A DNA stretch of 64,000 nt. Source: a virus (lineage: Duplodnaviria > Caudoviricetes). The translations under genes were made by a program, and so were the position numbers. Under the pieces are notes generated by a model. That model saw only the letters and a program-made list of their open reading frames with translations. It did no database searches and was not told the origin of the DNA. This document shows positions 22,911-64,000 of this stretch, piece by piece (positions within the stretch are counted from its first letter, which is position 1; each line of letters starts with the position of its first letter). The stretch is from positions 79,494-143,493 of IMG/VR virus record IMGVR_UViG_3300033120_000868, one strand, 5' to 3'.

Positions 22911-23897
22911 TTATTCTTCTCCATACCCTTCAGTTATTAATTTTCTAAAAGCTAAAGATAAGTCACCCTCGCATTCTAGCTCCACAAAAACATCAGTCGG
23001 AGAATATCCCCTACCTACATCAAAACTTGTGCTTGTTGAAAAACAATTAAAAACCCTTGTGTCTGTATCAAATAAAGCACTACTACCTGATTTAGGATTA
23101 CCTGCTCTTTTTAAACGAATAGATTTTCCTCTACTACCTTTACATTCTTCCCAACCACTATCTAAAAGTAAAGAGATGACATCCCCTCTCTCGTTATAAT
23201 CTTCAAAAGGGCTTAATTTCCACTCTTTATACTTCTCTAGTCTTACATCCTTTCTTTCCTCTATTACATCATTAAATGAACGAGCTGTTTCTAAGATTAA
23301 GTTATACTCCTCAATAGAAATATGGTTTATTTTTCCATAAACAAATTCATATCCTGGGCTAGGTGACATAACAACATACCCTCCTGAAACAGTAGTAGAG
23401 CCACCACGAGTCTCAAGTAATACTCTAACCTTATCATTAGATGCTATTTTTAAAGCTTTTGAGCGAGTTTTAGCATCGTTGAATGCTTCCATATAGGTTG
23501 AATGTTTTTCGTACTCTGTAGTATATCTTGAAGCTAACTTTTGATTAGGTTCTACAACATCAGAAGAAAATATGAAATGGTAGCCTTTATTCTTAGTAGT
23601 TTGTACAAACATTTTTCTGAGAAGTTCTTCAGGTAATGCTTTTTTATACCTATCAAATAAATCTCCACTTAAATCATATTTCAAATCGAAGTCAATTGCT
23701 GTTGTCTTTTTATTTCCACCCATTAGTAAAGCAATACCCCAACAATTAATAAAATACTGCTCACATTCTTTTTCTGTCATAGGACGAGTTTGAAATTGAC
23801 TCCAATCTCTAATTGCAGGAATCTTTTCGCTTGTAACAGGAATAACGGAGTAACCTGCTTTGCTATATTGTTTTGCTAATTCTACATAATTACTCAT
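22911..23897 (-). CDS. Bifunctional DNA primase/polymerase (Prim-Pol, AEP)
   Basis: GYSVIPV..KIP..W..FQ, AIDFD, TKNKGYH, ETRG..GYVVMSPS. Confidence 0.85.
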   Translation of the reverse strand: MSNYVELAKQYSKAGYSVIPVTSEKIPAIRDWSQFQTRPMTEKECEQYFINCWGIALLMGGNKKTTAIDFDLKYDLSGDLFDRYKKALPEELLRKMFVQTTKNKGYHFIFSSDVVEPNQKLASRYTTEYEKHSTYMEAFNDAKTRSKALKIASNDKVRVLLETRGGSTTVSGGYVVMSPSPGYEFVYGKINHISIEEYNLILETARSFNDVIEERKDVRLEKYKEWKLSPFEDYNERGDVISLLLDSGWEECKGSRGKSIRLKRAGNPKSGSSALFDTDTRVFNCFSTSTSFDVGRGYSPTDVFVELECEGDLSLAFRKLITEGYGEE

Positions 23898-23998
23898 CTT
23901 TATCTAAAATATAAATATTATCAAAAGCTATATATTTATTATCTACTTTCTCACAAAATTTTTTAGCCAAAAATTCAACAATAAAAAACGGCAATATT

Positions 23999-24220
23999 TT
24001 ATAAAAATTCCTCATACTTTGCGTATAAACCTAATTCAAAACTTTTTAAATCGACATTATCAGGAGGGTATGTTATATAAACTTGTCTATAATCACCCAT
24101 TAAACCTGCGTCTTCATACTCCCAATAAGCATAACAAGGGTACTTTTTAGGATACTCTTTAATATATTTCTTATCGTAAGGATAGAACTTTTCAAATTCC
24201 TCGTTGTTATTAATTTTCAT
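23999..24220 (-). CDS. hypothetical protein
   Basis: ORF in operon. Confidence 0.6.
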   Translation of the reverse strand: MKINNNEEFEKFYPYDKKYIKEYPKKYPCYAYWEYEDAGLMGDYRQVYITYPPDNVDLKSFELGLYAKYEEFL

Positions 24221-24234
24221 TTTTGATTGTTATT

Positions 24235-24504
24235 TTACACATTTTTACTAACACTTGAAGGTAAACTACCCAAATAAAGACTAACACGGATAGCATTTTT
24301 CTTTAACTTAGTTAGCCTTTTACCTTTTAACATTTCTTCAATTATTTCATCTTGTCTTTCTTGTGGCATATAATAATTATAAAACCACCCATCACGTTTT
24401 GTGACACCTTTTTCAATAAGCTCATCTAAATCGACACCTATTTCGGAATAAATTCTTCTGTAGATGTCCATCATAAGTTGCTCTTCTTTTTTAGTAGCTC
24501 TCAT
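24235..24504 (-). CDS. hypothetical protein
   Basis: ORF in operon. Confidence 0.65.
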   Translation of the reverse strand: MRATKKEEQLMMDIYRRIYSEIGVDLDELIEKGVTKRDGWFYNYYMPQERQDEIIEEMLKGKRLTKLKKNAIRVSLYLGSLPSSVSKNV

Positions 24505-54619: not shown

Positions 54620-54658
54620 GGTTAGTATAGGTGAGTTTCGCTTAGCCAATAGTTGTAA
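54620..54658 (+). other. putative attI-like primary recombination site
   Basis: GTTGTAA at 54652 matches the TTACAAC end of cassette 1 but has no upstream hairpin arm. Confidence 0.55.
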
Positions 54659-54678
54659 AACAGTTTAGAAAATACTTT

Positions 54679-55209
54679 ATGAAAATAAAAGAATCAGATA
54701 TAGAAGTTATAGATTTCATATTAAACTTAAGCCTATCTAAAGAAGTTTCTTTACAAGATTTACTTGAAAATAATATAATTGATTCACAACAAGGCGAGTT
54801 TCCTGAAATAAACTTATGGTACAATCCGAAAGATGAATTTGCTAGATATTTAAAAATACTTGAAAAATACAATTTATGTAACATAGTACGCTATATTGGT
54901 GCAGAAACTGCTATTAAAAATACAAACACTTCAATAACTCTCAACAGAGGTGGTTTTAAGCCAATATTTGAAAAAATACAACTTGATGAAGAAAAAGAAC
55001 AAATTGAATTTGAAAAATCTAAAATAGATTTAAAACTTAATAAATGGCTCTTAAAGACTAAATGGCTTCCACACTTTATTACTTTCATTTCTTTACTATT
55101 CGCTGTTTACGTTTATTTCGATTCTAAAAACGATTCAAAAAAATTAGAAGAACGAATAGAAAAGTTAGAATCGAAAATACCAATCCCGAAAAATGAGTCC
55201 AAAAAATAA
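54679..55209 (+). CDS. cassette 1 gene: membrane protein, canonical cassette orientation
   Basis: 176 aa, one TM near C-terminus flanked by coiled coils; only credible + strand gene after 14.8 kb. Confidence 0.8.
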   Translation: MKIKESDIEVIDFILNLSLSKEVSLQDLLENNIIDSQQGEFPEINLWYNPKDEFARYLKILEKYNLCNIVRYIGAETAIKNTNTSITLNRGGFKPIFEKIQLDEEKEQIEFEKSKIDLKLNKWLLKTKWLPHFITFISLLFAVYVYFDSKNDSKKLEERIEKLESKIPIPKNESKK

Positions 55210-55264: not shown

Positions 55265-55330
55265 AATAAAATAATTTTAATACTTGACACTTAACAAAGG
55301 CGGACAAGTTAAACCTTAATAAAACCGATT

Positions 55331-55466
55331 TTACAACAGCGGTTTGTTTCAAGTGGCGGTTTAGTGATAATCCGAAAACGCCGTTGTAAAATTTAATAAT
55401 TAGTTTATATTTGTAATGGCTTGGTGCTGAAATCGCCACCTGAAAACAAGCCACAGAACGTTATAT
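55331..55466 (+). repeat. attC-like site 1
   Basis: TTACAAC..GGTTTGTTTCAAGTGGCG / CGCCACCTGAAAACAAGCC..GTTATAT. Confidence 0.85.
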
Positions 55467-55472
55467 GATAGC

Positions 55473-55718
55473 TTACTCAACTTTGTGGCTAAAAAGTTCA
55501 TTGTAATATTTTTCAGCTCTTTCTTCTTGTGTTATGTTATATCCGTAAAGTTCCCAATCAGCACCATCGTTGAAAGAAGTTTTTATTTGCTCTTTTTCTT
55601 TATTAATTTTATCTTCTACCATATCAATAATTAAATTAACAGTGGTTTTAATAAAAGGATTTTCGACTATTTTAGAAACTTCTTCTAATTCATTAAGTAA
55701 TTCTTGCATTGCTGTCAT
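55473..55718 (-). CDS. cassette 2 gene, phage-type small protein
   Basis: MTAMQEL..KEKEQI...F.DG..AEKYYNE. Confidence 0.75.
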   Translation of the reverse strand: MTAMQELLNELEEVSKIVENPFIKTTVNLIIDMVEDKINKEKEQIKTSFNDGADWELYGYNITQEERAEKYYNELFSHKVE

Positions 55719-55741: not shown

Positions 55742-55874
55742 ATATAACAATGCATTGTAGCAATTGTGGTTTAAGGCTTAATTAATAATTTGTTTTTACT
55801 TGGTTAGTTTTAGTCTTAATTTGAAGCATTGTGCAAGTCTAACCACAACTGACTACAATGCTTTAACGTTATGT
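55742..55874 (+). repeat. attC-like site 2
   Basis: ATATAAC..GCATTGTAGCAATTGTGGTT / AACCACAACTGACTACAATGC..GTTATGT. Confidence 0.88.
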
Positions 55875-56180
55875 GATATTTTCCAAAACGACTAAATCAG
55901 AAATATCATCTAAATAATAAACAGTTTGTTCTCCGTCATACCATTGCGGTTCTATAGGTACATTTAGACTAATTGATAATTTGTATTCTTCTGTATTATT
56001 ATATTTTGTTTGTGGTGGGTATATAAAACTTATAATTCCAGTAAACCATTCGTTTCTTTCTTTTTCTTTGAATGCCACAACAGTATTTTCTTTACAGTTA
56101 ATCAAAACATCACATAACAGTGGTTTTGACTTATTGCCGTTTTCGGCTTCATTTAATGTTGGTTTTGTACTTTCTGACAT
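55869..56180 (-). CDS. cassette 3 gene (starts inside attC3)
   Basis: probable start MSESTK in attC loop; stop = TTA of R box. Confidence 0.7.
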   Translation of the reverse strand: MSESTKPTLNEAENGNKSKPLLCDVLINCKENTVVAFKEKERNEWFTGIISFIYPPQTKYNNTEEYKLSISLNVPIEPQWYDGEQTVYYLDDISDLVVLENIT

Positions 56181-56246
56181 TGTTTTTAATTTAAAGTTGG
56201 TCTTGTATTTAATCGGCAACAAGACAAAGCCACAGGAGCGTTATGC
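56112..56246 (+). repeat. attC-like site 3
   Basis: ACATAAC..TGGTTTTGACTTATTGCCG / CGGCAACAAGACAAAGCCA..GTTATGC. Confidence 0.88.
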
Positions 56247-56252
56247 ACAATA

Positions 56253-56717
56253 TTATAGAATACCATACAAATCATAATGATTTTCCAAAAACCAATTATA
56301 GTGTTCTGCAATCATATTTTTATTATATCCTAAAAAAGTAGTGATTTGTGCATGACCTCCTGTATCTCTGTTTGGTATATTTATGGTCAATGAACCATTT
56401 TTACCCTTTTTCCAAGTTATTTTATGAAAATATAAATCTTCTCTTTTTCCTAAAATATATCTTGAAAACTTACTTAATTGTTGTTGAACTAGAAAATCAT
56501 TAATATTTTTTAACTCAGGTATATACCCTAAATCTATAATATTTTTAGCTGAATCTCCGTTTTCAAAGATAAATCTTCCATTATATCCAATAAGTTTCAA
56601 TCTACCATATTGACAATTAAAATAAATCCCGTAAGGAAGATATTTAAGTAAAATACTGTGCATAACAGCGGTTTTGTCGCATTGTGGTACTTGGGTATTT
56701 TTTGAAAGTTCAGTCAT
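56253..56717 (-). CDS. cassette 4 gene (starts inside attC4)
   Basis: 154 aa; YLPYG..., WFLENHYDLYG. Confidence 0.75.
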   Translation of the reverse strand: MTELSKNTQVPQCDKTAVMHSILLKYLPYGIYFNCQYGRLKLIGYNGRFIFENGDSAKNIIDLGYIPELKNINDFLVQQQLSKFSRYILGKREDLYFHKITWKKGKNGSLTINIPNRDTGGHAQITTFLGYNKNMIAEHYNWFLENHYDLYGIL

Positions 56718-56795
56718 AATTTTAAAATTTAGTTATTATTTGTTAAGTTTGGTCTTAAATCGCCACAACGACGACAAAGCCACAGGGCGTTATCA
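56660..56795 (+). repeat. attC-like site 4
   Basis: GCATAAC..GGTTTTGTCGCATTGTGG / CCACAACGACGACAAAGCC..GTTATCA. Confidence 0.88.
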
Positions 56796-56981
56796 CTCAG
56801 CTTGTAGAACACCTAAATCATCGATGTTTAGTATTGTAAATCTATCTTGCTTTTCAAATAATTGTTCTCCAACTTCTTGTGCAATTTCTTTTTCTGAAAA
56901 GCGTAAAGTTTTTCTATTAGCACCATATAACGCTTTTTTAGTGTCTAAATCAATAATAATCCATTTTCTTTCTTTTTTCAT
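56793..56981 (-). CDS. cassette 5 gene
   Basis: 62 aa filling the cassette. Confidence 0.7.
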   Translation of the reverse strand: MKKERKWIIIDLDTKKALYGANRKTLRFSEKEIAQEVGEQLFEKQDRFTILNIDDLGVLQAE

Positions 56982-57006
56982 CTTGTTTGTATTTAAAAAG
57001 CCGAAG

Positions 57007-57138
57007 TGATAACATACGCTAACCGCTATTCAGGCTTTAGGTTAAATTTAAAGTGTGTTTTGTGTCTGTAAGATTTGTAATAATCCGAAATTTCAGTCCT
57101 TACTTTTCCTGAACATCGGTTAGCGTCCGCCGTTATGT
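57007..57138 (+). repeat. attC-like site 5
   Basis: TGATAAC..ACGCTAACCGCTATTCAGG / CCTGAACATCGGTTAGCGT..GTTATGT. Confidence 0.88.
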
Positions 57139-57139
57139 A

Positions 57140-57355
57140 TCATTTTTTAAATTGACATTTTTCGTATATTTTTGCAAGTGGTGTTATAAAATCTTTACCA
57201 GTAAATAAATATGGTATAGTTATTACAGCAGTATACGGTATATTTACAAGCAAAAATATTAACCACAGCATCATTTCATAAAAACGATACATAACAACAG
57301 ATATACTCAATTTTGAGTTCTGTGTTTCATTCAAGTTTTCTTCTTTTTCAATCAT
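57140..57355 (-). CDS. cassette 6 gene, small membrane protein (starts inside attC6)
   Basis: hydrophobic core. Confidence 0.65.
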   Translation of the reverse strand: MIEKEENLNETQNSKLSISVVMYRFYEMMLWLIFLLVNIPYTAVITIPYLFTGKDFITPLAKIYEKCQFKK

Positions 57356-57418
57356 TTTATTTATTATTTAAATTATTACTATTTAATTCAAAACTAAGTA
57401 TATCTGCAATCGTTAACC
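57289..57418 (+). repeat. attC-like site 6
   Basis: ACATAAC..CAGATATACTCAATTTTGAGTT / AATTCAAAACTAAGTATATCTG..GTTAACC. Confidence 0.85.
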
Positions 57419-57658
57419 ACAATTGCATATCAGAAGTTTAATAGACGCTATTGTATTTGATTCTGGCTTTTCAAATTCAGTTACAAATTCCAATCCTTTT
57501 TTATCTAATTCATCAAACAAAAAGTTGTCAATATCTTGGTAAGAATTAAACCATTTCATCCCGTTTCTATTGCTTTTTTCAAGTTCGGATAAAGCAACTG
57601 TGGTTAACACAGGTTTTGTGCTATTGCTTGGCTTGTTGTTTTCTGAATGTTTATTCAT
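57413..57658 (-). CDS. cassette 7 gene (starts inside attC7)
   Basis: stop = TTA of R box. Confidence 0.7.
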   Translation of the reverse strand: MNKHSENNKPSNSTKPVLTTVALSELEKSNRNGMKWFNSYQDIDNFLFDELDKKGLEFVTEFEKPESNTIASIKLLICNCG

Positions 57659-57736
57659 AATCTGTAATTTTTAGTGTTTAATTTAATGTTTTAGTTTTCT
57701 TTTACGCAACAGACACAAAGCCTGAGGACGTTATAA
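57602..57736 (+). repeat. attC-like site 7
   Basis: GGTTAAC..CAGGTTTTGTGCTATTGC / GCAACAGACACAAAGCCTG..GTTATAA. Confidence 0.88.
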
Positions 57737-57746
57737 GAAATAGCTA

Positions 57747-57974
57747 CTAATCGTTTTCAAAATCAAATTCTTCTTCAATAATATCTAATAGACTTGTGGC
57801 TATATCTCCGTTATGTATTCTAAAAGCTATCTTTTTAGCTTCAGAAACTATATATTCAGCGTCATCTTCGCTTATAAGTTCAAAAACCGCTGGGTCTGTA
57901 ATGTCATTTGCAATTAAAATAGCTTGACACCATCTTTTCGCTATTCTTTTTAAAACTAATTTATCTTTTACCAT
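57747..57974 (-). CDS. cassette 8 gene
   Basis: probable start MVKDK (frame open back to 58058 inside attC8). Confidence 0.7.
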   Translation of the reverse strand: MVKDKLVLKRIAKRWCQAILIANDITDPAVFELISEDDAEYIVSEAKKIAFRIHNGDIATSLLDIIEEEFDFEND

Positions 57975-58003
57975 AACTTTTAATTTAAATTTACCGCTAC
58001 TTC

Positions 58004-58081
58004 TTATAACAGGTGTTTGTAAATACCAGCCGAATATACTATGCGTGTAGGCTGGCATCTACAAGCACCAAAACGTTAGCA
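58004..58081 (+). repeat. attC-like site 8 (short, 78 bp)
   Basis: TTATAAC..GGTGTTTGTAAATACCAGCC / GGCTGGCATCTACAAGCACC..GTTAGCA. Confidence 0.88.
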
Positions 58082-58091
58082 AACATTGTTA

Positions 58092-58421
58092 CTATTTCGT
58101 TAAAAAGAAATCATATCCAACAAACGGCAAAGAAGCTCTAAATTTAGTATCTTTTGGAACATTCCATTTTTTTATCAATCTAACAACTGATTTTAATGAA
58201 TAAGCATCGTTAAAACCATCGTGTGACATAGAATAATACACAGATGTATTTCCTGTTTTTTCCCATTCTCCTGTTTGGGTATTAAACCATAAATTATTTT
58301 CAACTGGTTCTATCCAAAATGGTCTTTTCATTCTTCTTTTAGAACCATCTTCATATTTAGAATGAATTGTAACGCTTTTAAAAATCCTTTGCCCTTTAGG
58401 TTTACTTGAAATAATTTTCAT
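58092..58421 (-). CDS. cassette 9 gene
   Basis: probable start MKIISS. Confidence 0.7.
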   Translation of the reverse strand: MKIISSKPKGQRIFKSVTIHSKYEDGSKRRMKRPFWIEPVENNLWFNTQTGEWEKTGNTSVYYSMSHDGFNDAYSLKSVVRLIKKWNVPKDTKFRASLPFVGYDFFLTK

Positions 58422-58453
58422 AATATTTTTTATTTTAAATACCCACAACGATT

Positions 58454-58588
58454 TGCTAACAGCATATTTATTCAATTGTGGCTTTTGGGTTAATTAAATG
58501 TTTATTGTGTGTTTGTAATGTTAATTTTTAAATTGATAGTTCGTTTTGTGCTTATCCACAACTGAAATAAATACCCAAAACGTTAGTG
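58454..58588 (+). repeat. attC-like site 9
   Basis: TGCTAAC..TATTTATTCAATTGTGG / CCACAACTGAAATAAATA..GTTAGTG. Confidence 0.85.
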
Positions 58589-58927
58589 ACAATTGCAGAC
58601 AAGACGTTCAATAAGATAATCACTATCTTTTTTAACAATAGGAATTATCAAATTTTTAATCTGTTTTTTTTGTTTTTTATTCATTTTAGGATTTACTGGT
58701 TGTATTATTTCCCCCGTATTAATCATAATTAATATTCCTTTGTCCTTATGTTGTACAGAAGAATCTAATGATTTCCCATTGAACCATTTTGCAGAAAAAC
58801 ATTCAGGATTTGATTTTAAAATTTCAATTACCTTTTCTATAAATACTTGTTCGTGAGCATCCAAAGGAGAACAACTGTCACTAACAGCGTGTATAAAAAA
58901 TGGCTTTTTTAGGCTTAATTTAAACAT
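58583..58927 (-). CDS. cassette 10 gene (starts inside attC10)
   Basis: stop = TTA of R box. Confidence 0.7.
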   Translation of the reverse strand: MFKLSLKKPFFIHAVSDSCSPLDAHEQVFIEKVIEILKSNPECFSAKWFNGKSLDSSVQHKDKGILIMINTGEIIQPVNPKMNKKQKKQIKNLIIPIVKKDSDYLIERLVCNCH

Positions 58928-59010
58928 AATTTTGTGTTTTTATAATTAGTAATAATTCAATAATTTAGGCGTACTTGCACGCCACTTCTTATACACGCAA
59001 AACGTTATAG
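58879..59010 (+). repeat. attC-like site 10
   Basis: CACTAAC..GCGTGTATAAAAAATGGC / GCCACTTCTTATACACGC..GTTATAG. Confidence 0.88.
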
Positions 59011-59030
59011 TTAATGGCTACAAATTGTTT

Positions 59031-59429
59031 TTACATACCTATATTTTCAATTCCAAGTAACTCAATAAGTATATGTATCTCTTTACTACCCCATTCGTTT
59101 TCTATATTAAATATAATTTCTTTGTCAGATAAAATTTCTTGCATATAATTATCCTTTACTTTTACACCCCACCAATTACCGTCTGATGCAAGAGTTAAAA
59201 TATCTGAATTATCACGAATTGTTTTAATCTTATCATAAAAAGACATTTGGTTAAATCTTTTAGCCATTTCTACGTATTGCTCTAAAGTGAATTTTCTTTT
59301 ATAATTATTGTTCGTGCTTTTAGCTCTCATATAATCATCATATTCTCTAGTACTCATACCTCTTGGGTCTTGTGTATCATAAAAATCACTTGCTTTAACA
59401 TCTCTGTAATCAATTCTTTTGTTTTTCAT
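59031..59429 (-). CDS. cassette 11 gene, paralog of backbone gene 14832-15095
   Basis: shared T.EQY....RFN.MSF..K..TI..N..I.....DG. Confidence 0.75.
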   Translation of the reverse strand: MKNKRIDYRDVKASDFYDTQDPRGMSTREYDDYMRAKSTNNNYKRKFTLEQYVEMAKRFNQMSFYDKIKTIRDNSDILTLASDGNWWGVKVKDNYMQEILSDKEIIFNIENEWGSKEIHILIELLGIENIGM

Positions 59430-59457
59430 AATTTCAGTTTTTAAAAACCGCCACTAA

Positions 59458-59590
59458 CTATAACAGTAGTTTGTAGCAATGGCTGGCTTGTTGTTTAATT
59501 TAATGTTTTTGGCTTATCGGTATTGTAGTTTTTAAACCAAAACTACTCGCTTACTTGCACGCCACTGCAACAAGCTACAAAACGTTAGGC
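59458..59590 (+). repeat. attC-like site 11
   Basis: CTATAAC..GTAGTTTGTAGCAATGGC / GCCACTGCAACAAGCTAC..GTTAGGC. Confidence 0.88.
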
Positions 59591-59821
59591 GATATGCCCT
59601 ACACCCTTACTGTCAGCAAATTGGTATCCGTGTCTTTGATTACTATATTTCTTTTCTCGTCCTTGCATACCATCTGTCCATACTTTACCACAACACTTGC
59701 AACGATAGGCACGTCTCCCATCAAATGCTCTACCTTTTTCAGGGTTAGTTGTTTGACAAGAAGCACATCGCCTAACATCGGCTTTGTTCAATACCTTATC
59801 TTCTGTATTATCGTTTTTCAT
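59585..59821 (-). CDS. cassette 12 gene, Zn-ribbon protein (starts inside attC12)
   Basis: CASC...YRCKCCG; stop = TTA of R box. Confidence 0.7.
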   Translation of the reverse strand: MKNDNTEDKVLNKADVRRCASCQTTNPEKGRAFDGRRAYRCKCCGKVWTDGMQGREKKYSNQRHGYQFADSKGVGHIA

Positions 59822-59892
59822 GTTATTTAAATTTTAAAAATTACGTTTAGTTTTCATAAGTCGGCACTAAACAAAGCCGAGAACCGTTAGCA
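59770..59892 (+). repeat. attC-like site 12
   Basis: GCCTAAC..TCGGCTTTGTTCAATACC / GGCACTAAACAAAGCCGA..GTTAGCA. Confidence 0.88.
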
Positions 59893-59896
59893 GTAA

Positions 59897-60139
59897 TTAA
59901 TCCTCGAACTTAACAAATTTGAATTTATACCCACCTTTCTTAATTCCAAACTTCTCACACCATCTTTCAAACCAATTTGATTTAATGATTATTATTTGCC
60001 ATTTTTCTGCATAATCTAACGCATTTTGTTCTGTAATTAATCCATCTTTTTCAAGGCGTTCTAAAACTAAGTCTTTTACTTGATTTGCGTTTAGTGTATA
60101 TTCTTCTAAAGAAATTAACATTCCATCCATTTGTGCCAT
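59897..60139 (-). CDS. cassette 13 gene
   Basis: 80 aa filling the cassette. Confidence 0.7.
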   Translation of the reverse strand: MAQMDGMLISLEEYTLNANQVKDLVLERLEKDGLITEQNALDYAEKWQIIIIKSNWFERWCEKFGIKKGGYKFKFVKFED

Positions 60140-60161
60140 AATATTTGTATTTTATAACTAC

Positions 60162-60293
60162 TGCTAACAACGGTTATACAATAGTTGGGTTAATTGTTTA
60201 ATTTAAAGTCTGTTTTGTGCTTTTAAAATCTGTGATAAATCAAAAGTTAAGGAGTACCAACCCCAACCATCGTATAGCCGTCGAACGTTATGT
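60162..60293 (+). repeat. attC-like site 13
   Basis: TGCTAAC..ACGGTTATACAATAGTTGGG / CCCAACCATCGTATAGCCGT..GTTATGT. Confidence 0.88.
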
Positions 60294-60299
60294 GCCATT

Positions 60300-60509
60300 T
60301 TAAGACACACTATCCTTCAACTTTTGCAGTTCGACAATTAAGTCATCTACTTGTTGAATTAAGTTCATTTTGGCTGACCAATCATTTGCTCCATATCCTG
60401 AAAATTCAGCGCGGAAATGACCCCAAGCGTGATTTTTAGAACTTAATTCGATTTCGGCTTCACAACTTTGAGCCTTTTGTTTACCATCGTTTCTTAATTT
60501 TATTTCCAT
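60300..60509 (-). CDS. cassette 14 gene
   Basis: 69 aa filling the cassette. Confidence 0.7.
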   Translation of the reverse strand: MEIKLRNDGKQKAQSCEAEIELSSKNHAWGHFRAEFSGYGANDWSAKMNLIQQVDDLIVELQKLKDSVS

Positions 60510-60538
60510 TTTATTGTTGATTTATTAATAAAAACGGC

Positions 60539-60634
60539 ACATAACAAGGGTTTTGCGTAATAGCCCTATCAAGTGTCGTGGTTAATTTTAAGTTTTTACT
60601 AAGGGCTACTACGCAAAGCCCCGATACGTTATCA
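60539..60634 (+). repeat. attC-like site 14
   Basis: ACATAAC..GGGTTTTGCGTAATAGCCCT / AGGGCTACTACGCAAAGCCC..GTTATCA. Confidence 0.88.
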
Positions 60635-60859
60635 CTCAGCTTTTGACGAACTAAATAAATAAGCTAATTTCTCTGGAATAAGCATTTTTACTTTCACACT
60701 TGTTCCATTCCAAAAACTTTCTTCTACGTCATACGACTGAATTATTCCGTTGTGGTTTTCTATTTTTTTTTCTAAATCACGTGCTTGAGATTTTGTTTTA
60801 CATACTGCTGAAAAAAGTAAATATTTAATTCCGTTTACTTCATAAATTAATTGTTCCAT
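60632..60859 (-). CDS. cassette 15 gene
   Basis: 75 aa filling the cassette. Confidence 0.7.
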   Translation of the reverse strand: MEQLIYEVNGIKYLLFSAVCKTKSQARDLEKKIENHNGIIQSYDVEESFWNGTSVKVKMLIPEKLAYLFSSSKAE

Positions 60860-60880
60860 TTTGTGTGAATTAAGCCGAAG

Positions 60881-61012
60881 TGATAACAGTGGTTACACAA
60901 TATTGCCACTTCTGGAGTTATTTAATGTTGTTTTTGTACTTGTTTTGTTGGTTGTTTAATCGAATATTTTCGCTTACTTTTGGCAACATCGTGTAGCCAC
61001 AAAACGTTATAA
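60881..61012 (+). repeat. attC-like site 15
   Basis: TGATAAC..GTGGTTACACAATATTGCCA / TGGCAACATCGTGTAGCCAC..GTTATAA. Confidence 0.88.
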
Positions 61013-61249
61013 CTCATTTTTAGAAAGAGCTATGTTTACAATTGATATTGCTTTTTTAATCTGAGATATACTTTTAAATTCAGGCGTTATGTCAATTAAT
61101 TCTTCATCAGTGAGTATTTCACATAAATAATCATATTCTTCATCATTTATTCTCCAAAGTTGTTTATACATATCATCAAACGCATCTGTAATACCGCCAC
61201 ATCCTTTGTAAACTATATCTGTTCTATTTTTCCTTTCAAATCGTGTCAT
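61007..61249 (-). CDS. cassette 16 gene
   Basis: stop = TTA of R box. Confidence 0.7.
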   Translation of the reverse strand: MTRFERKNRTDIVYKGCGGITDAFDDMYKQLWRINDEEYDYLCEILTDEELIDITPEFKSISQIKKAISIVNIALSKNEL

Positions 61250-61261
61250 AATTAAAACGAG

Positions 61262-61394
61262 TTATAACAGTGGTTTTGCTCAATGGCTGTTTTTGGCAAA
61301 ACTTATACACTGTTTTGTGTTTGTAAAATTTGTTTTTAATTCAATAATTTAGGCTTGCTTTTCAGCCACTAAGCAAAGCCACAGGACGTTAACA
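61262..61394 (+). repeat. attC-like site 16
   Basis: TTATAAC..GTGGTTTTGCTCAATGGCTG / CAGCCACTAAGCAAAGCCAC..GTTAACA. Confidence 0.88.
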
Positions 61395-61441
61395 GATATG
61401 GTATGAAGTAGATACCGCATACCATTCTGAAAACTACCTTT

Positions 61442-61810
61442 TTATTTTTTAAACAACCAATTTGATTTTTCTGTACTTTTAAATTCAGATAAATAATTTT
61501 GAAATTGTTCATAGCTACAATCTAATATTTCTTTAGCATCAATTGAATGAGAATAATCAATATTATCTAATGATTCCAAAGTGAACAACATATTGTCTTG
61601 CCATTTAACACCATCAATAGACAATAAAACTTCTGACCTAATTTGTCTTTGATAGACAATTTTATAACCTTCCCACCACTTTGAAAATCTATTTTCAAGT
61701 TCTTCTTGTTCTGAACATTCTAAATTTGAAGCATCGCTCGATGATTGCAAAAATAAATCTAACGGATTTAATTTTGCTTGAATTTCTGTTGTATTAATTG
61801 TTGTTTTCAT
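61442..61810 (-). CDS. cassette 17 gene C
   Basis: 122 aa. Confidence 0.65.
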   Translation of the reverse strand: MKTTINTTEIQAKLNPLDLFLQSSSDASNLECSEQEELENRFSKWWEGYKIVYQRQIRSEVLLSIDGVKWQDNMLFTLESLDNIDYSHSIDAKEILDCSYEQFQNYLSEFKSTEKSNWLFKK

Positions 61811-61841
61811 ATTTTTTTAGCACTTATCCTTGCAATTGGTT

Positions 61842-62156
61842 TTAATTATTTAAAAATTCAGATGCTTGTATTATTTCATATTCTTTTTCATATTCAGGGC
61901 TTGTTATTCTACCACAATTTACATAAGTAATATTGCCGTCTATACTTAATGAAAAAATACTTTGTTGTGTTGTAGAAAAAAAGGGGTCATAAAAAATAGG
62001 TCTAATATTTCCTATTTGTTCACGATACCAATCTCTATGCCAAGACATTCTTTTACACTTATCATTTGGGTTAATATCTTTTCTTCTTTCCCATTCTTCA
62101 AAAGAATTAAACTGAATTAATATTTTTTTATCTTCAAAATTTTCGAGTTTTTTCAT
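61842..62156 (-). CDS. cassette 17 gene B
   Basis: 104 aa. Confidence 0.65.
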   Translation of the reverse strand: MKKLENFEDKKILIQFNSFEEWERRKDINPNDKCKRMSWHRDWYREQIGNIRPIFYDPFFSTTQQSIFSLSIDGNITYVNCGRITSPEYEKEYEIIQASEFLNN

Positions 62157-62160
62157 AATA

Positions 62161-62436
62161 CTAATAAGTTAAGTTAGAAAAAGTTTTACCTTCGTTGTTT
62201 ACGATATAGTTTTGTTCATCTTTCCATAAAGGATAAGTTTCTTTTGCATCTTCTGAAATAACAAAAGCATAACAACCACCTACTTCAATTTTTTCTTGAC
62301 CTTCTAATTGAAAAAAGTCAACATACATTTTAAAAAAAGCTTCTTCGTTTTTTTCTTTTCTAATAACTGAATAGCTTTCTCCTAAGTTCTGATTGAACTC
62401 CATTTTTACACTTGTAATTTTTCTTAATGTGTACAT
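62161..62436 (-). CDS. cassette 17 gene A
   Basis: 91 aa; MYTLR.I...N..LG..Y...YIVN..GKTF. Confidence 0.7.
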   Translation of the reverse strand: MYTLRKITSVKMEFNQNLGESYSVIRKEKNEEAFFKMYVDFFQLEGQEKIEVGGCYAFVISEDAKETYPLWKDEQNYIVNNEGKTFSNLTY

Positions 62437-62508
62437 AAATTCATATATTTATTTATTGCCTACTCTATTAGCTTTTCGGCTTCCGCTATATTTTAAAATA
62501 ACCACATC

Positions 62509-62641
62509 TGTTAACACTGCATTGTAGCAATTGTGGGTTAAGGCTTAATTAATAATTTGTTTTTTACTTGTTTTGGTTAGTTTTAAATCGAAACATTGTG
62601 CTAGTATAACCACAACTGACTACAATGCTTTAACGTTAGGT
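62509..62641 (+). repeat. attC-like site 17 (body nearly identical to attC2)
   Basis: TGTTAAC..GCATTGTAGCAATTGTGG / CCACAACTGACTACAATGC..GTTAGGT. Confidence 0.88.
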
Positions 62642-62647
62642 GCAATG

Positions 62648-63136
62648 CTACGACCACACCGCATTTTGATACTTCTTTTCATATTTGACAAATTTGTGAA
62701 TGAATCCGTAATCGTGGCAGACAAATTTATTACCTATCCAACCAAAATTATCTGCCTTGACATCTGTAAAGAAATAAGGCACTTTTTTTGGGCGTTCTTT
62801 ATCTAACTGTTTAGTCCGTTCCATTATTAATACTTTACCGTTAGGACTGCACCAGTGAATCGGAGCAAACCATTCTTTTACCCAAGCAAGATTTCCTTTT
62901 AATCCTTGAATTTCATCCCAAAGTAAAAATTCAGCGATGTTGCAATCTGTACTGTTTGGTTCAACTTTTACAACCATTTTATTTGGGTTCATATTGAACT
63001 CGTAAACACTTCTGTAAGAACCACTACCCAATTTTTCACCACAAAGAGTAAGTATTAAATCTGTATTTACATCTTGTAATTTACTTAAAGTAGAAACTTC
63101 ATCTACATTATTTAATCTATTTGTTAATCTAATCAT
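62648..63136 (-). CDS. cassette 18 gene, minimal protein-kinase-like protein
   Basis: LGSGSYRSVY, VVK, E, LIME, DVKADNFG, HDYG. Confidence 0.75.
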   Translation of the reverse strand: MIRLTNRLNNVDEVSTLSKLQDVNTDLILTLCGEKLGSGSYRSVYEFNMNPNKMVVKVEPNSTDCNIAEFLLWDEIQGLKGNLAWVKEWFAPIHWCSPNGKVLIMERTKQLDKERPKKVPYFFTDVKADNFGWIGNKFVCHDYGFIHKFVKYEKKYQNAVWS

Positions 63137-63174
63137 TTTTTAAGGTTTAAAACCGTTTAACAAAAAAGCACTGC

Positions 63175-63307
63175 ACCTAACAAGGTATTGCCAAAAGTGG
63201 GGCTTTCGTGCTTTCTATTATCTTCTGTACTCATATTTAACATTTGTTCTTTTAATTAACTTTGGTGGTTTAATGCCCCACCTTCGGCAATACCCAAAAC
63301 GTTATAA
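63175..63307 (+). repeat. attC-like site 18
   Basis: ACCTAAC..GGTATTGCCAAAAGTGGGGC / GCCCCACCTTCGGCAATACC..GTTATAA. Confidence 0.88.
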
Positions 63308-63313
63308 GCCATT

Positions 63314-63514
63314 TTAACGACCACGTAACTCATTACGTTCTTTAACTTCTATTTCGTCTGTATAATCTTCAAACAATAGCTTGCCAATTTTATCCCAAGA
63401 AACAAAAGTTTCCTTTGATGGCATTCTATTTGGTTTCAATCTTGCAGGAATATTTGTTTTTAAAATTACTCCTTCTTCTTTAGCTGTATAGCCTGTAATA
63501 ATTACTTTTTGCAT
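63314..63514 (-). CDS. cassette 19 gene
   Basis: 66 aa filling the cassette. Confidence 0.7.
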   Translation of the reverse strand: MQKVIITGYTAKEEGVILKTNIPARLKPNRMPSKETFVSWDKIGKLLFEDYTDEIEVKERNELRGR

Positions 63515-63559
63515 TGTTTTTAAATTAAATTGTTAAGCCAAACACGAATAAAAAACGGC

Positions 63560-63655
63560 TTATAACAGTGGTTTGGCAAAATACCGCCACAAGCCTTTGT
63601 ACTAAATTTGAACATTGTGCAAGGCGGCACTTCGCCAAGCCACCAAACGTTAGCG
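63560..63655 (+). repeat. attC-like site 19
   Basis: TTATAAC..GTGGTTTGGCAAAATACCGCC / GGCGGCACTTCGCCAAGCCAC..GTTAGCG. Confidence 0.88.
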
Positions 63656-63856
63656 GTAATGCTTTGATAAATACTTTTCGACAATATCTATCATTTGTAA
63701 TTCGTCATTGTATATATCGTAAAATCCATCAACATCTTCTAAATGTGGTCTGCTGGTTAATTTTTTAACTATTTCTTTAGCGTGGTAATTAGCACTAACC
63801 ATAACACCAGTTTTGCAAGATTGCTTGTTTTGTGATTTTTTGGAAACTTTAGTCAT
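63650..63856 (-). CDS. cassette 20 gene (starts inside attC20)
   Basis: stop = TTA of R box. Confidence 0.65.
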   Translation of the reverse strand: MTKVSKKSQNKQSCKTGVMVSANYHAKEIVKKLTSRPHLEDVDGFYDIYNDELQMIDIVEKYLSKHYR

Positions 63857-63931
63857 AATTTTAAGTGTATTTTGTATTTGTTAATTTTAGGTTTTTAGTT
63901 CGCAACCTCGCAAAGCCAAAAATCGTTATAG
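63799..63931 (+). repeat. attC-like site 20
   Basis: CCATAAC..TTTTGCAAGATTGC / GCAACCTCGCAAAG..GTTATAG. Confidence 0.8.
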
Positions 63932-63937
63932 CAAATG

Positions 63938-64000
63938 CTAGAAATCAATATCCGTTACAATAAATGTTTCATTACAATCTTCGCAAGTAATTTCTATATC
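63938..64000 (-). CDS. cassette 21 gene, C-terminal fragment (Zn-ribbon-like)
   Basis: ...DIEITCEDCNETFIVTDIDF* runs off the window end. Confidence 0.55.
   Translation of the reverse strand, partial: DIEITCEDCNETFIVTDIDF

Follow-up and report, generated by a model that had tools for sequence, protein, structure and literature searches.

The window analysed here, the final 64 kb (64,000 nucleotides) of a 143,493-base viral record (IMG/VR record IMGVR_UViG_3300033120_000868), contains about 20 small cassette genes separated by integron-like hairpins between positions 55331 and 63931. On the basis of the comparisons that follow, we think it probable that this is an integron-like array in which the hairpin acts as start module and leader for the gene behind it and the core of the site acts as stop codon, a joint explanation of how the genes begin and end. 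Because the record encodes replication, nucleotide-metabolism, and virion genes (DNA polymerase, DnaB-type helicase, primase, ribonucleotide reductase, thymidylate synthase, an exonuclease, and a large virion protein), it belongs to a phage, and this phage is of the virulent type with a Flavobacterium-like host. A scan of the 143-kb record with the integron-integrase model, to which Xer proteins also respond, detected no tyrosine recombinase.

In the mechanism that we propose, the starting point is the layout of the array: terminal inverted repeats of 15 nt, with a GTTA/TAAC core, flank the small genes, and the hairpins of 80 to 135 nt between them are of the family used in Flavobacterium chromosomes beside an Xer/IntI-like recombinase. 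As the phage genes occupy the strand opposite to that used in the bacterial arrays, the mRNA would carry the hairpin ahead of the gene, with an A-rich and mostly unpaired loop of 70 to 80 nt. In roughly 40% of the cassettes, an ATG near the middle of the loop, 42 to 63 nt from the box, would open the gene; host ribosomes, which do not depend on a Shine-Dalgarno (SD) sequence, would start in the loop and continue across the 3' arm and the terminal repeat before reaching the body, so that the protein acquires a hydrophilic head of 15 to 25 residues. The gene would end at the complement of the core, TAA, in which case its last four codons would be site sequence, or at an in-frame TAA 12 nt inside the repeat. 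The parts would be moved by a recombinase of the host.

Sites were called with our own covariance model, trained on 17 of the window hairpins, rather than with that of IntegronFinder. The model recovered 20 sites in the window, all on the plus strand and with scores of 45 to 127 bits, and had no other match there. In the alignment of the sites, 14 of the 15 predicted stem pairs showed compensatory changes, and both strands of the sites fold, with energies of −16 to −40 kcal/mol. Every one of the 20 sites starts with xxxTAAC or xxxCAAC and ends with GTTAxxx, in agreement with the RYYYAAC...GTTRRRY boxes of attC sites. For successive window cassettes, the 7 nt following each GTTA core and the 7 nt preceding the next TAAC are exact reverse complements of each other. 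Over 209 cassettes from the window and related loci, the complementarity of the cassette ends extended to positions 1 to 10 and 12 to 15 (in 62–100% of cassettes), that is, to terminal inverted repeats of 15 nt; position 11 was A in every right flank (100%) and in no case complementary to the left flank. Examples of right flanks are found at 55460–55475, 56240–56255, and 63301–63316, and positions 14 to 16 often read TTA, a second built-in stop. Such complementarity of the ends is a signature of integron-type cassettes. The array shares with integron attC sites their boxes, a single-strand fold in which structure is kept over sequence, and a cassette start complementary to its own inverse core. 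With 20 sites in the window, 5 more elsewhere in the record, and no integrase nearby, it also has the composition of an integrase-less attC cluster (CALIN; at least two successive attC sites); an integron integrase with the extra domain (TIGR02249) was not found in the phage record. In the classical attC, extrahelical bases on the R''-L'' arm mark the bottom strand. The sites described here have no single bulged G or T; instead they carry a bulge of 4 to 5 nt beside GTTA, a conserved G·T/A·C stem position, and an A/C mismatch at position 11. All cassette genes except the first lie on the minus strand, and a Pfam search with 20 cassette proteins returned nothing above threshold and only two weak DUF matches.

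The palindromic AACGTT at one end and the near symmetry of the sites make the strand assignment ambiguous from the site alone, and we therefore examined arrays of the same family in other genomes. An exact search with the site-family pattern gave bacterial matches that were, among those listed, almost all from Flavobacterium and other Bacteroidota; viral contigs were also matched. Arrays of this family lie beside an Xer/IntI-like recombinase gene in Flavobacterium chromosomes (loci L248, L249, and L250). In Flavobacterium covae (L248:3681-19635), the gene for a 393-residue recombinase (L248:3681-4862) divergently adjoins 13 sites in the plus orientation of the model; all genes of the array share the strand of the sites, their ends falling at the TAAC box or immediately ahead of it. 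In F. terrae, a gene and a site, in the same orientation, come after the recombinase gene. The Flavobacterium recombinases scored 184 to 219 bits against TIGR02249 (cut-off, 265), matching it in two pieces that skipped model positions 177–240, and they scored about equally on the Xer/integron-integrase model. Of 102 bacterial cassettes, 94 were sense and 8 antisense with respect to the site; of 87 cassettes in viral contigs, 79 were antisense and 8 sense; and in the window 17 of 19 were antisense, with two scored as sense. A top-strand gene with the attC downstream is thus the arrangement of the bacterial arrays and not that of the window or the phage cassettes. The asymmetries of the sites (the bulge beside GTTA, the wobble stem position, and the A at position 11) are identical in the bacterial and phage sets. 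At its left end, the window array opens with a cassette-start box that has no hairpin before it (54652–54660, plus strand), an attI-like entry point that is complementary to 55329–55337, carries the invariant position-11 A, and has no model site to the left of 55331; the gene of cassette 1 (54679–55209, plus strand) is the sole sense-oriented gene of the array. Because of the Flavobacterium orientation, the shared asymmetries, and this hairpin-less box, we take the plus strand of the window to be the top strand, which puts the site ahead of the gene on the coding strand. A preliminary description of this DNA had likewise placed the genes antisense to their sites, and the orientation of the Flavobacterium arrays beside the recombinase bears this out. 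The ordinary orientation, with the minus strand as top strand and the bulge on the arm expected to carry the extra bases, was considered and was rejected in view of the sense genes beside the F. covae recombinase and in 94 of 102 bacterial cassettes. Elsewhere in the record (23391–24282), two more sites occur in the opposite orientation with a plus-strand gene (23598–23966) between them and minus-strand neighbors; this gene, too, is antisense to its sites, and the antisense relation therefore belongs to the cassette and not to the direction of phage transcription.

Seven window genes, those of cassettes 3, 4, 6, 7, 10, 12, and 20, had been described as starting in the loop of their own attC. 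The open frames are present in all seven, as are the seven leader strings that had been quoted for them: in each, the loop ATG lies 42 to 62 nt past the C of the AAC box, and from it the frame stays open across left arm and box and on into the body. These genes are all on the minus strand, and the hairpins ahead of them, like all others called by the covariance model in the window, are on the plus strand. Three of the genes possess no other in-frame ATG. They are gene 55869–56180 (loop ATG at 56180), whose leader is formed by the loop and left arm of hairpin 3 (56112–56246, 109 bits); gene 58583–58927 (loop ATG at 58927; hairpin 10, 58879–59010); and the zinc-ribbon gene 59585–59821, for which hairpin 12 (59770–59892) contains the sole possible starts, ATG 59821 in the loop or TTG 59791 in the arm. 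The remaining four carry a further in-frame ATG, which forms GTT-ATG at the box in gene 56253–56717 (loop ATG 56717, box ATG 56663; hairpin 4, 56660–56795, whose leader family also occurs on other bodies), gene 57140–57355 (loop ATG 57355, box ATG 57292; hairpin 6, 57289–57418), and gene 63650–63856 (loop ATG 63856, box ATG 63802; hairpin 20, 63799–63931), and lies 49 nt inside the body, at 57559, in gene 57413–57658 (loop ATG 57658; hairpin 7, 57602–57736).

Frame statistics were compiled from 96 antisense cassettes, comprising those of the window and of 30 viral loci. A loop ATG with a frame open to the box was found in 44 of the 96 when the gene frame was read, versus 6 and 11 for the two remaining frames (p = 2.5e-12). 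As controls, sense cassettes read into the site of the neighbor gave 5, 5, and 10 of 104, and the same strand of bacterial sites, with no gene downstream, gave 9, 2, and 11 of 94, a neutral rate of about 8%. By comparison with the bacterial-site control, the out-of-frame rate in the phage cassettes is neutral and the in-frame rate is five- to six-fold higher. When the frame was set from only the stop-proximal 60% of the body, the counts were 29 of 65 versus 3 of 65 and 7 of 65. Among single-gene cassettes, a loop ATG was present in 12 of the 14 that lack an ATG in box or body and in 27 of the 73 that have one (p = 0.001). A continuous in-frame open reading frame (ORF) across the box was observed for 39 of the 96 cassettes, and the distance from loop ATG to box was 36 to 81 nt, mostly 42 to 63 nt.

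The surroundings of the loop ATGs also resemble those of ordinary starts in the arrays, being A-rich at −13 to −11, −7 to −5, and −3, and are unlike those of other ATG triplets in the loops; the predicted unpaired probability was 0.63 for the loop ATGs and 0.16 for the arm. Initiation in Flavobacterium makes no use of SD sequences and needs low structure and upstream adenines, and stray AUGs near starts are avoided (PMC6847099). The A-rich, predicted-unpaired loop ATGs fit this SD-less mode of initiation.

A protein search of viral contigs with gene 55869–56180 returned 21 loci, 20 of which matched only the first 22 to 49 residues, ending ...NGNKSKPLL; no relatives of its body were found in these contigs, only leader matches. 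In 16 of the 20 copies, versus one third (p = 3e-5), the leader continues in-frame into ORFs of 73 to 156 residues and of at least 13 unrelated kinds. An ATG, in one of two positions separated by 3 nt, and a frame free of gaps are kept in all 15 distinct copies. Homologues of other window genes were also informative. Three relatives of the zinc-ribbon gene 59585–59821, which are not cassettes and lie in GC-richer phage contigs, start 3 to 9 residues before the first Cys; in the window gene this Cys is three codons past the box with no start codon between, so the start must lie within the site. For gene 58583–58927, the hairpin ahead of a homologous body at L277 is a different one, and its loop, too, supplies the opening ATG; a homologue at L278 that is not a cassette has a longer and unrelated N-terminus. 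The homology starts precisely at the box, with no conserved alternative start. The preliminary description had predicted that homologues outside cassettes should lack the leaders, and the relatives of these two genes do lack them. The non-cassette homologue of gene 58583–58927 (L278:899-1318) contains a box-like sequence inside its longer native coding region, without a hairpin, which hints that the cassette may have been cut from a longer gene at a pre-existing GTTA. The protein of gene 56253–56717 is 87% identical overall to one at L279, with a leader that is sharply different yet in frame, and at the DNA level the identity (83–90%) extends from box to box only (window 56238–56680). No relatives of gene 57413–57658 were found in viral contigs. 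The frame excess, the ATG-less bodies, the reuse of one leader, the homologues, and the sequence context give comparative support to the earlier suggestion that the A-rich loop may act as a portable initiation region, with similar leaders on unrelated proteins, and to the view that ribosomes use the loop ATGs.

The stop codons, too, are often supplied by the sites. In cassettes 3, 7, 10, 12, 16, and 20 the stop had been placed exactly on bases 2 to 4 of GTTA, and all six coordinates were verified: TAA, the complement of these bases, occupies 55869–55871, 57413–57415, 58583–58585, 59585–59587, 61007–61009, and 63650–63652, the fifth of these ending a minus-strand gene (61007–61249) that has its ATG in the body. 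The genes of cassettes 5 and 15 (56793–56981 and 60632–60859, minus strand) stop, as had also been proposed, at TGA within the 7-nt box GTTATCA (56793–56795 and 60632–60634). Among 104 antisense cassettes, the stop was the core TAA in 21 and a TAA at offset 13 in 30. The latter corresponds to the semi-conserved TTA at terminal-repeat positions 14 to 16 and shares its frame with the core TAA, 12 nt further in; in the window, this second built-in TAA, at offset 13 from the core G, ends gene 55473–55718 (minus strand), and the stops at 56253, 60300, 62648, and 63314 are of the same kind. Of the 82 genes ending 27 nt or less from the core, 61 were in the frame that reads the core as TAA (p = 3e-14). 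A stop on the core makes the last four codons repeat sequence, and the unrelated genes 57413–57658 and 58583–58927 end in a nearly identical tetrapeptide. Bacterial sense genes display the mirror pattern at the other box (8 of 104 on TAAC and 27 of 104 at 13 to 15 nt), and we infer from this that the stop in the box is an old integron habit that has been carried over to the opposite box.

The description of the leaders as belonging to a gene's own attC holds in so far as the leader lies in the hairpin ahead of the gene, but the hairpin interiors and the bodies assort independently, and "the hairpin in front" is the better wording. The interior of hairpin 3, present in 20 contigs besides the window, is common to 21 loci (198 of 210 pairs similar), and the bodies on either side of it are unrelated (6 of 210 pairs on each side); of nine homologous body pairs in phage loci, none shares a neighboring interior. 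Bodies conserved from box to box (83–90%) with both flanking interiors differing were seen for window 56238–56680 versus L279 and for 58583–58885 versus L277, and one interior shared with unrelated neighboring bodies was seen at L256–L276. The bacterial body pairs were dominated by one multi-copy family and were left uninterpreted. As homology breaks at both boxes, exchange seems to occur at both, which a one-sided attC crossover does not predict; the breaks alone do not reveal the chemistry, such as recombinase-mediated exchange at G|TT of the core. It is possible, and we put it forward tentatively, that the hairpin interiors (with initiation region, ATG, and leader codons) and the bodies are separately mobile modules that are swapped at the TAAC and GTTA junctions, probably by the Xer/IntI-like recombinase of the host acting on either strand. 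If so, these phages would possess a combinatorial system, with recombination sites that double as plug-in translation starts, and the site-encoded head could be a common tag on accessory proteins, for example for sorting or turnover.

Several observations weigh against the hairpin as the start module of the gene behind it. A loop start is likely but not forced for the genes with starts at 56717, 57355, 57658, and 63856, which have another in-frame ATG. Because a given interior is not tied to the body behind it, a gene does not, strictly speaking, have a start module of its own. A codon-position test on the 15 distinct copies of the shared leader revealed no third-position excess, so that the ATG and the frame, and not visibly the peptide sequence, are under selection. 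No conserved promoter was recognized in the loops. The motif that the loops share occurred in the window no more often than in shuffled sequence, no promoter consensus emerged (the sigma-70 scan omits Bacteroidota promoters), and Bacteroidota −33/−7 motifs picked out by eye were inconsistent; the promoter idea was dropped on the basis of the motif and the inconsistent −33/−7 elements. The shared leader ends after 21 to 31 codons in 4 of its 20 copies, and the 25-codon ORF that opens in the loop of hairpin 18 (63157–63234, minus strand; hairpin 18, 63175–63307), which translates as previously quoted, also ends as a short ORF, out of frame with gene 62648–63136 and 21 nt before its ATG. These short ORFs fit translational coupling as well as fusion, and they favor an alternative in which the loop ORFs are helper upstream ORFs: ribosomes would melt the hairpin and hand over to the gene by termination and reinitiation, the in-frame fusions being tolerated by-products. 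Such a mechanism is known in class 1 integrons, from ORF-11 and ORF-18 of attI1 and from short ORFs in attC sites (PMC8876359), and 73 of the 87 single-gene cassettes have an ATG of their own in box or body. Coupling needs no shared frame, yet the box-reaching loop ORFs number 44 in the gene frame and 17 in the other two together, and out-of-frame loop ORFs occur only at the neutral rate; 12 of 14 ATG-less bodies rely on the loop ATG, and the zinc-ribbon gene has no start outside the site. Short SD-led ORFs that end near the cassette start and act by coupling, the ORF-11 type of helper, are not what was found, only a minority of the loop ORFs being short. We regard this alternative as unlikely. 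That the loop ATGs are unused, the true starts being an ATG in the box or body or a downstream non-ATG codon and the open frames accidents of A-rich sequence, is in our judgment very unlikely. It would accommodate the three window genes with GTT-ATG at the box, the one with an ATG 49 nt into its body, and the TTG or GTG codons in the bodies of genes 55869–56180 and 58583–58927. However, accidents of this kind amount to about 8% of frames on the same strand of bacterial sites with no gene downstream, versus 44–60% for the gene frame here; homologues of gene 58583–58927 do not retain its candidate TTG; and homologous bodies behind three different hairpins all retain an in-frame loop ATG.

Two further alternatives concern the nature and the strand of the sites. 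The hairpins might be phage regulatory stem-loops of the early promoter and stem-loop (PeSL) kind, shuffled by homologous recombination, with their likeness to attC due to shared ancestry or convergence. The phage lacks a recombinase, the independent assortment of interiors and bodies, broken at both boxes, is not what a one-sided attC crossover would give, and small ORFs lie between stem-loops in a variable region, as they do in PeSL regions (PMC2839356, PMC4122927). On the other hand, the same covariance model finds arrays adjoining a bacterial recombinase gene, the two ends of every body are exactly complementary apart from a fixed mismatch, which points to site-specific exchange, and no promoter motif common to the loops was recognized. 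The PeSL alternative, which we consider unlikely, bears on how the parts move and not on whether the sites code. The remaining alternative is that the minus strand is the top strand and that the array has the ordinary layout of gene followed by attC, the stops then lying in the inverse core and the loop ATGs belonging to the site of the upstream neighbor. The bulge of 4 to 5 nt would then be on the R''-L'' arm, as for classical extrahelical bases, and the palindromic AACGTT makes both ends alike. Against this, the recombinase-adjacent arrays of Flavobacterium place the orientation with the bulge beside GTTA after sense genes, the right-flank position-11 A asymmetry is equal in the bacterial and phage sets, and the hairpin-less box at 54652 opens the array on the left; we hold the ordinary layout to be highly improbable. 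Our preferred reading remains that of an integron-like array with translated sites ahead of antisense genes.

The other window hairpins, all on the plus strand, are hairpin 1 (55331–55466, 90 bits), hairpin 2 (55742–55874, 97 bits), hairpin 5 (57007–57138), the loop of which is not coding, hairpin 9 (58454–58588), hairpin 11 (59458–59590), hairpin 13 (60162–60293), hairpin 15 (60881–61012), hairpin 16 (61262–61394), and hairpin 17 (62509–62641), which has nearly the same interior as hairpin 2 and different boxes. Three are short: hairpin 8 (58004–58081, 78 nt, 45 bits), hairpin 14 (60539–60634), and hairpin 19 (63560–63655). The cassette at 61388–62515 holds three consecutive minus-strand genes (61442–61810, 61842–62156, and 62161–62436) that no hairpin separates. 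A site in a Flavobacterium sp. chromosome (G002:C1:2466123-2466240) matches hairpin 16 at about 93% identity, a likeness that suggests the genus of the host and a recent exchange of site sequences between host and phage. The final 356 bases of the record (143138–143493, window 63645–64000) are repeated exactly at record positions 539–894, and three further hairpin sites lie at record 1–132, 420–549, and 693–825; either the array runs on across the record ends or there are two variants of it, and the contig was broken within a repeated cassette.

Integron cassettes are taken to be promoterless genes, each followed by a non-coding recombination site, and the expression of captured genes far from the promoter of the platform is an open problem. 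Here the site ahead of the gene appears to bring start, initiation region, and stop. If this is true, a cassette would be expressible wherever it landed in a host that does not use SD sequences, and the short heads could serve as natural portable expression modules for Bacteroidota. Gene callers will then misplace N-termini in many phage genomes. Integron tools that assume sense genes and canonical integrases miss a family of sites that is common in Flavobacterium and occurs in at least hundreds of IMG/VR contigs.

The phage design that we propose is one of integron-type cassettes with the hairpin as start module and the core as stop; no description of it, or of translated, antisense phage hairpin sites with site-encoded starts, was found in the open-access literature searched. 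Several known systems come close. CALINs have been reported in phage genomes by Qi et al. 2023 (PMC9892861), who do not mention Bacteroidota, gene orientation, or start codons, and the IntegronFinder papers (PMC4889954, PMC9024848) report, for Bacteroidetes with IntegronFinder 2.0, only In0 elements and one complete integron. The phage array is like integron cassettes and CALINs in its small genes of mostly unknown function, its RYYYAAC/GTTRRRY-type boxes, its complementary ends, the frequent placement of the stop in the box at the gene end, and the lack of an integrase. It is unlike integron cassettes in that the genes are antisense, the site stands before the gene and would be translated, the repeats are 15 nt long with a fixed mismatch, and the classical extrahelical bases are missing; the associated bacterial recombinase, moreover, falls below the IntI cut-offs and has no match to IntI model positions 177–240. 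In attI1, ORF-11 and ORF-18, together with short ORFs in attC sites, aid the translation of cassettes that have no initiation region (PMC8876359). As in the phage sites, a recombination site supplies a start and an initiation region to any cassette downstream, and the ORF crosses the crossover point; however, the attI1 ORFs act mainly by coupling, rely on SD sequences, and belong to the platform or the upstream cassette, whereas the phage ORFs are mostly in-frame fusions, have no SD sequence, lie in a hairpin loop, and accompany many cassettes. The PeSL elements of T4-type phages are mobile regulatory cassettes composed of a promoter and a terminator (PMC2839356, PMC4122927). They share with the phage hairpins described here the conserved stem-loops between small variable genes, the same module beside many unrelated genes, and shuffling in hyperplastic regions, but PeSL elements are untranslated, lack TAAC/GTTA boxes and complementary ends, and have no host counterpart next to a recombinase. 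A PeSL is defined by a conserved early promoter joined to a terminator stem-loop; in the phage sites a stem-loop is present, and the loops gave no recognizable promoter consensus.

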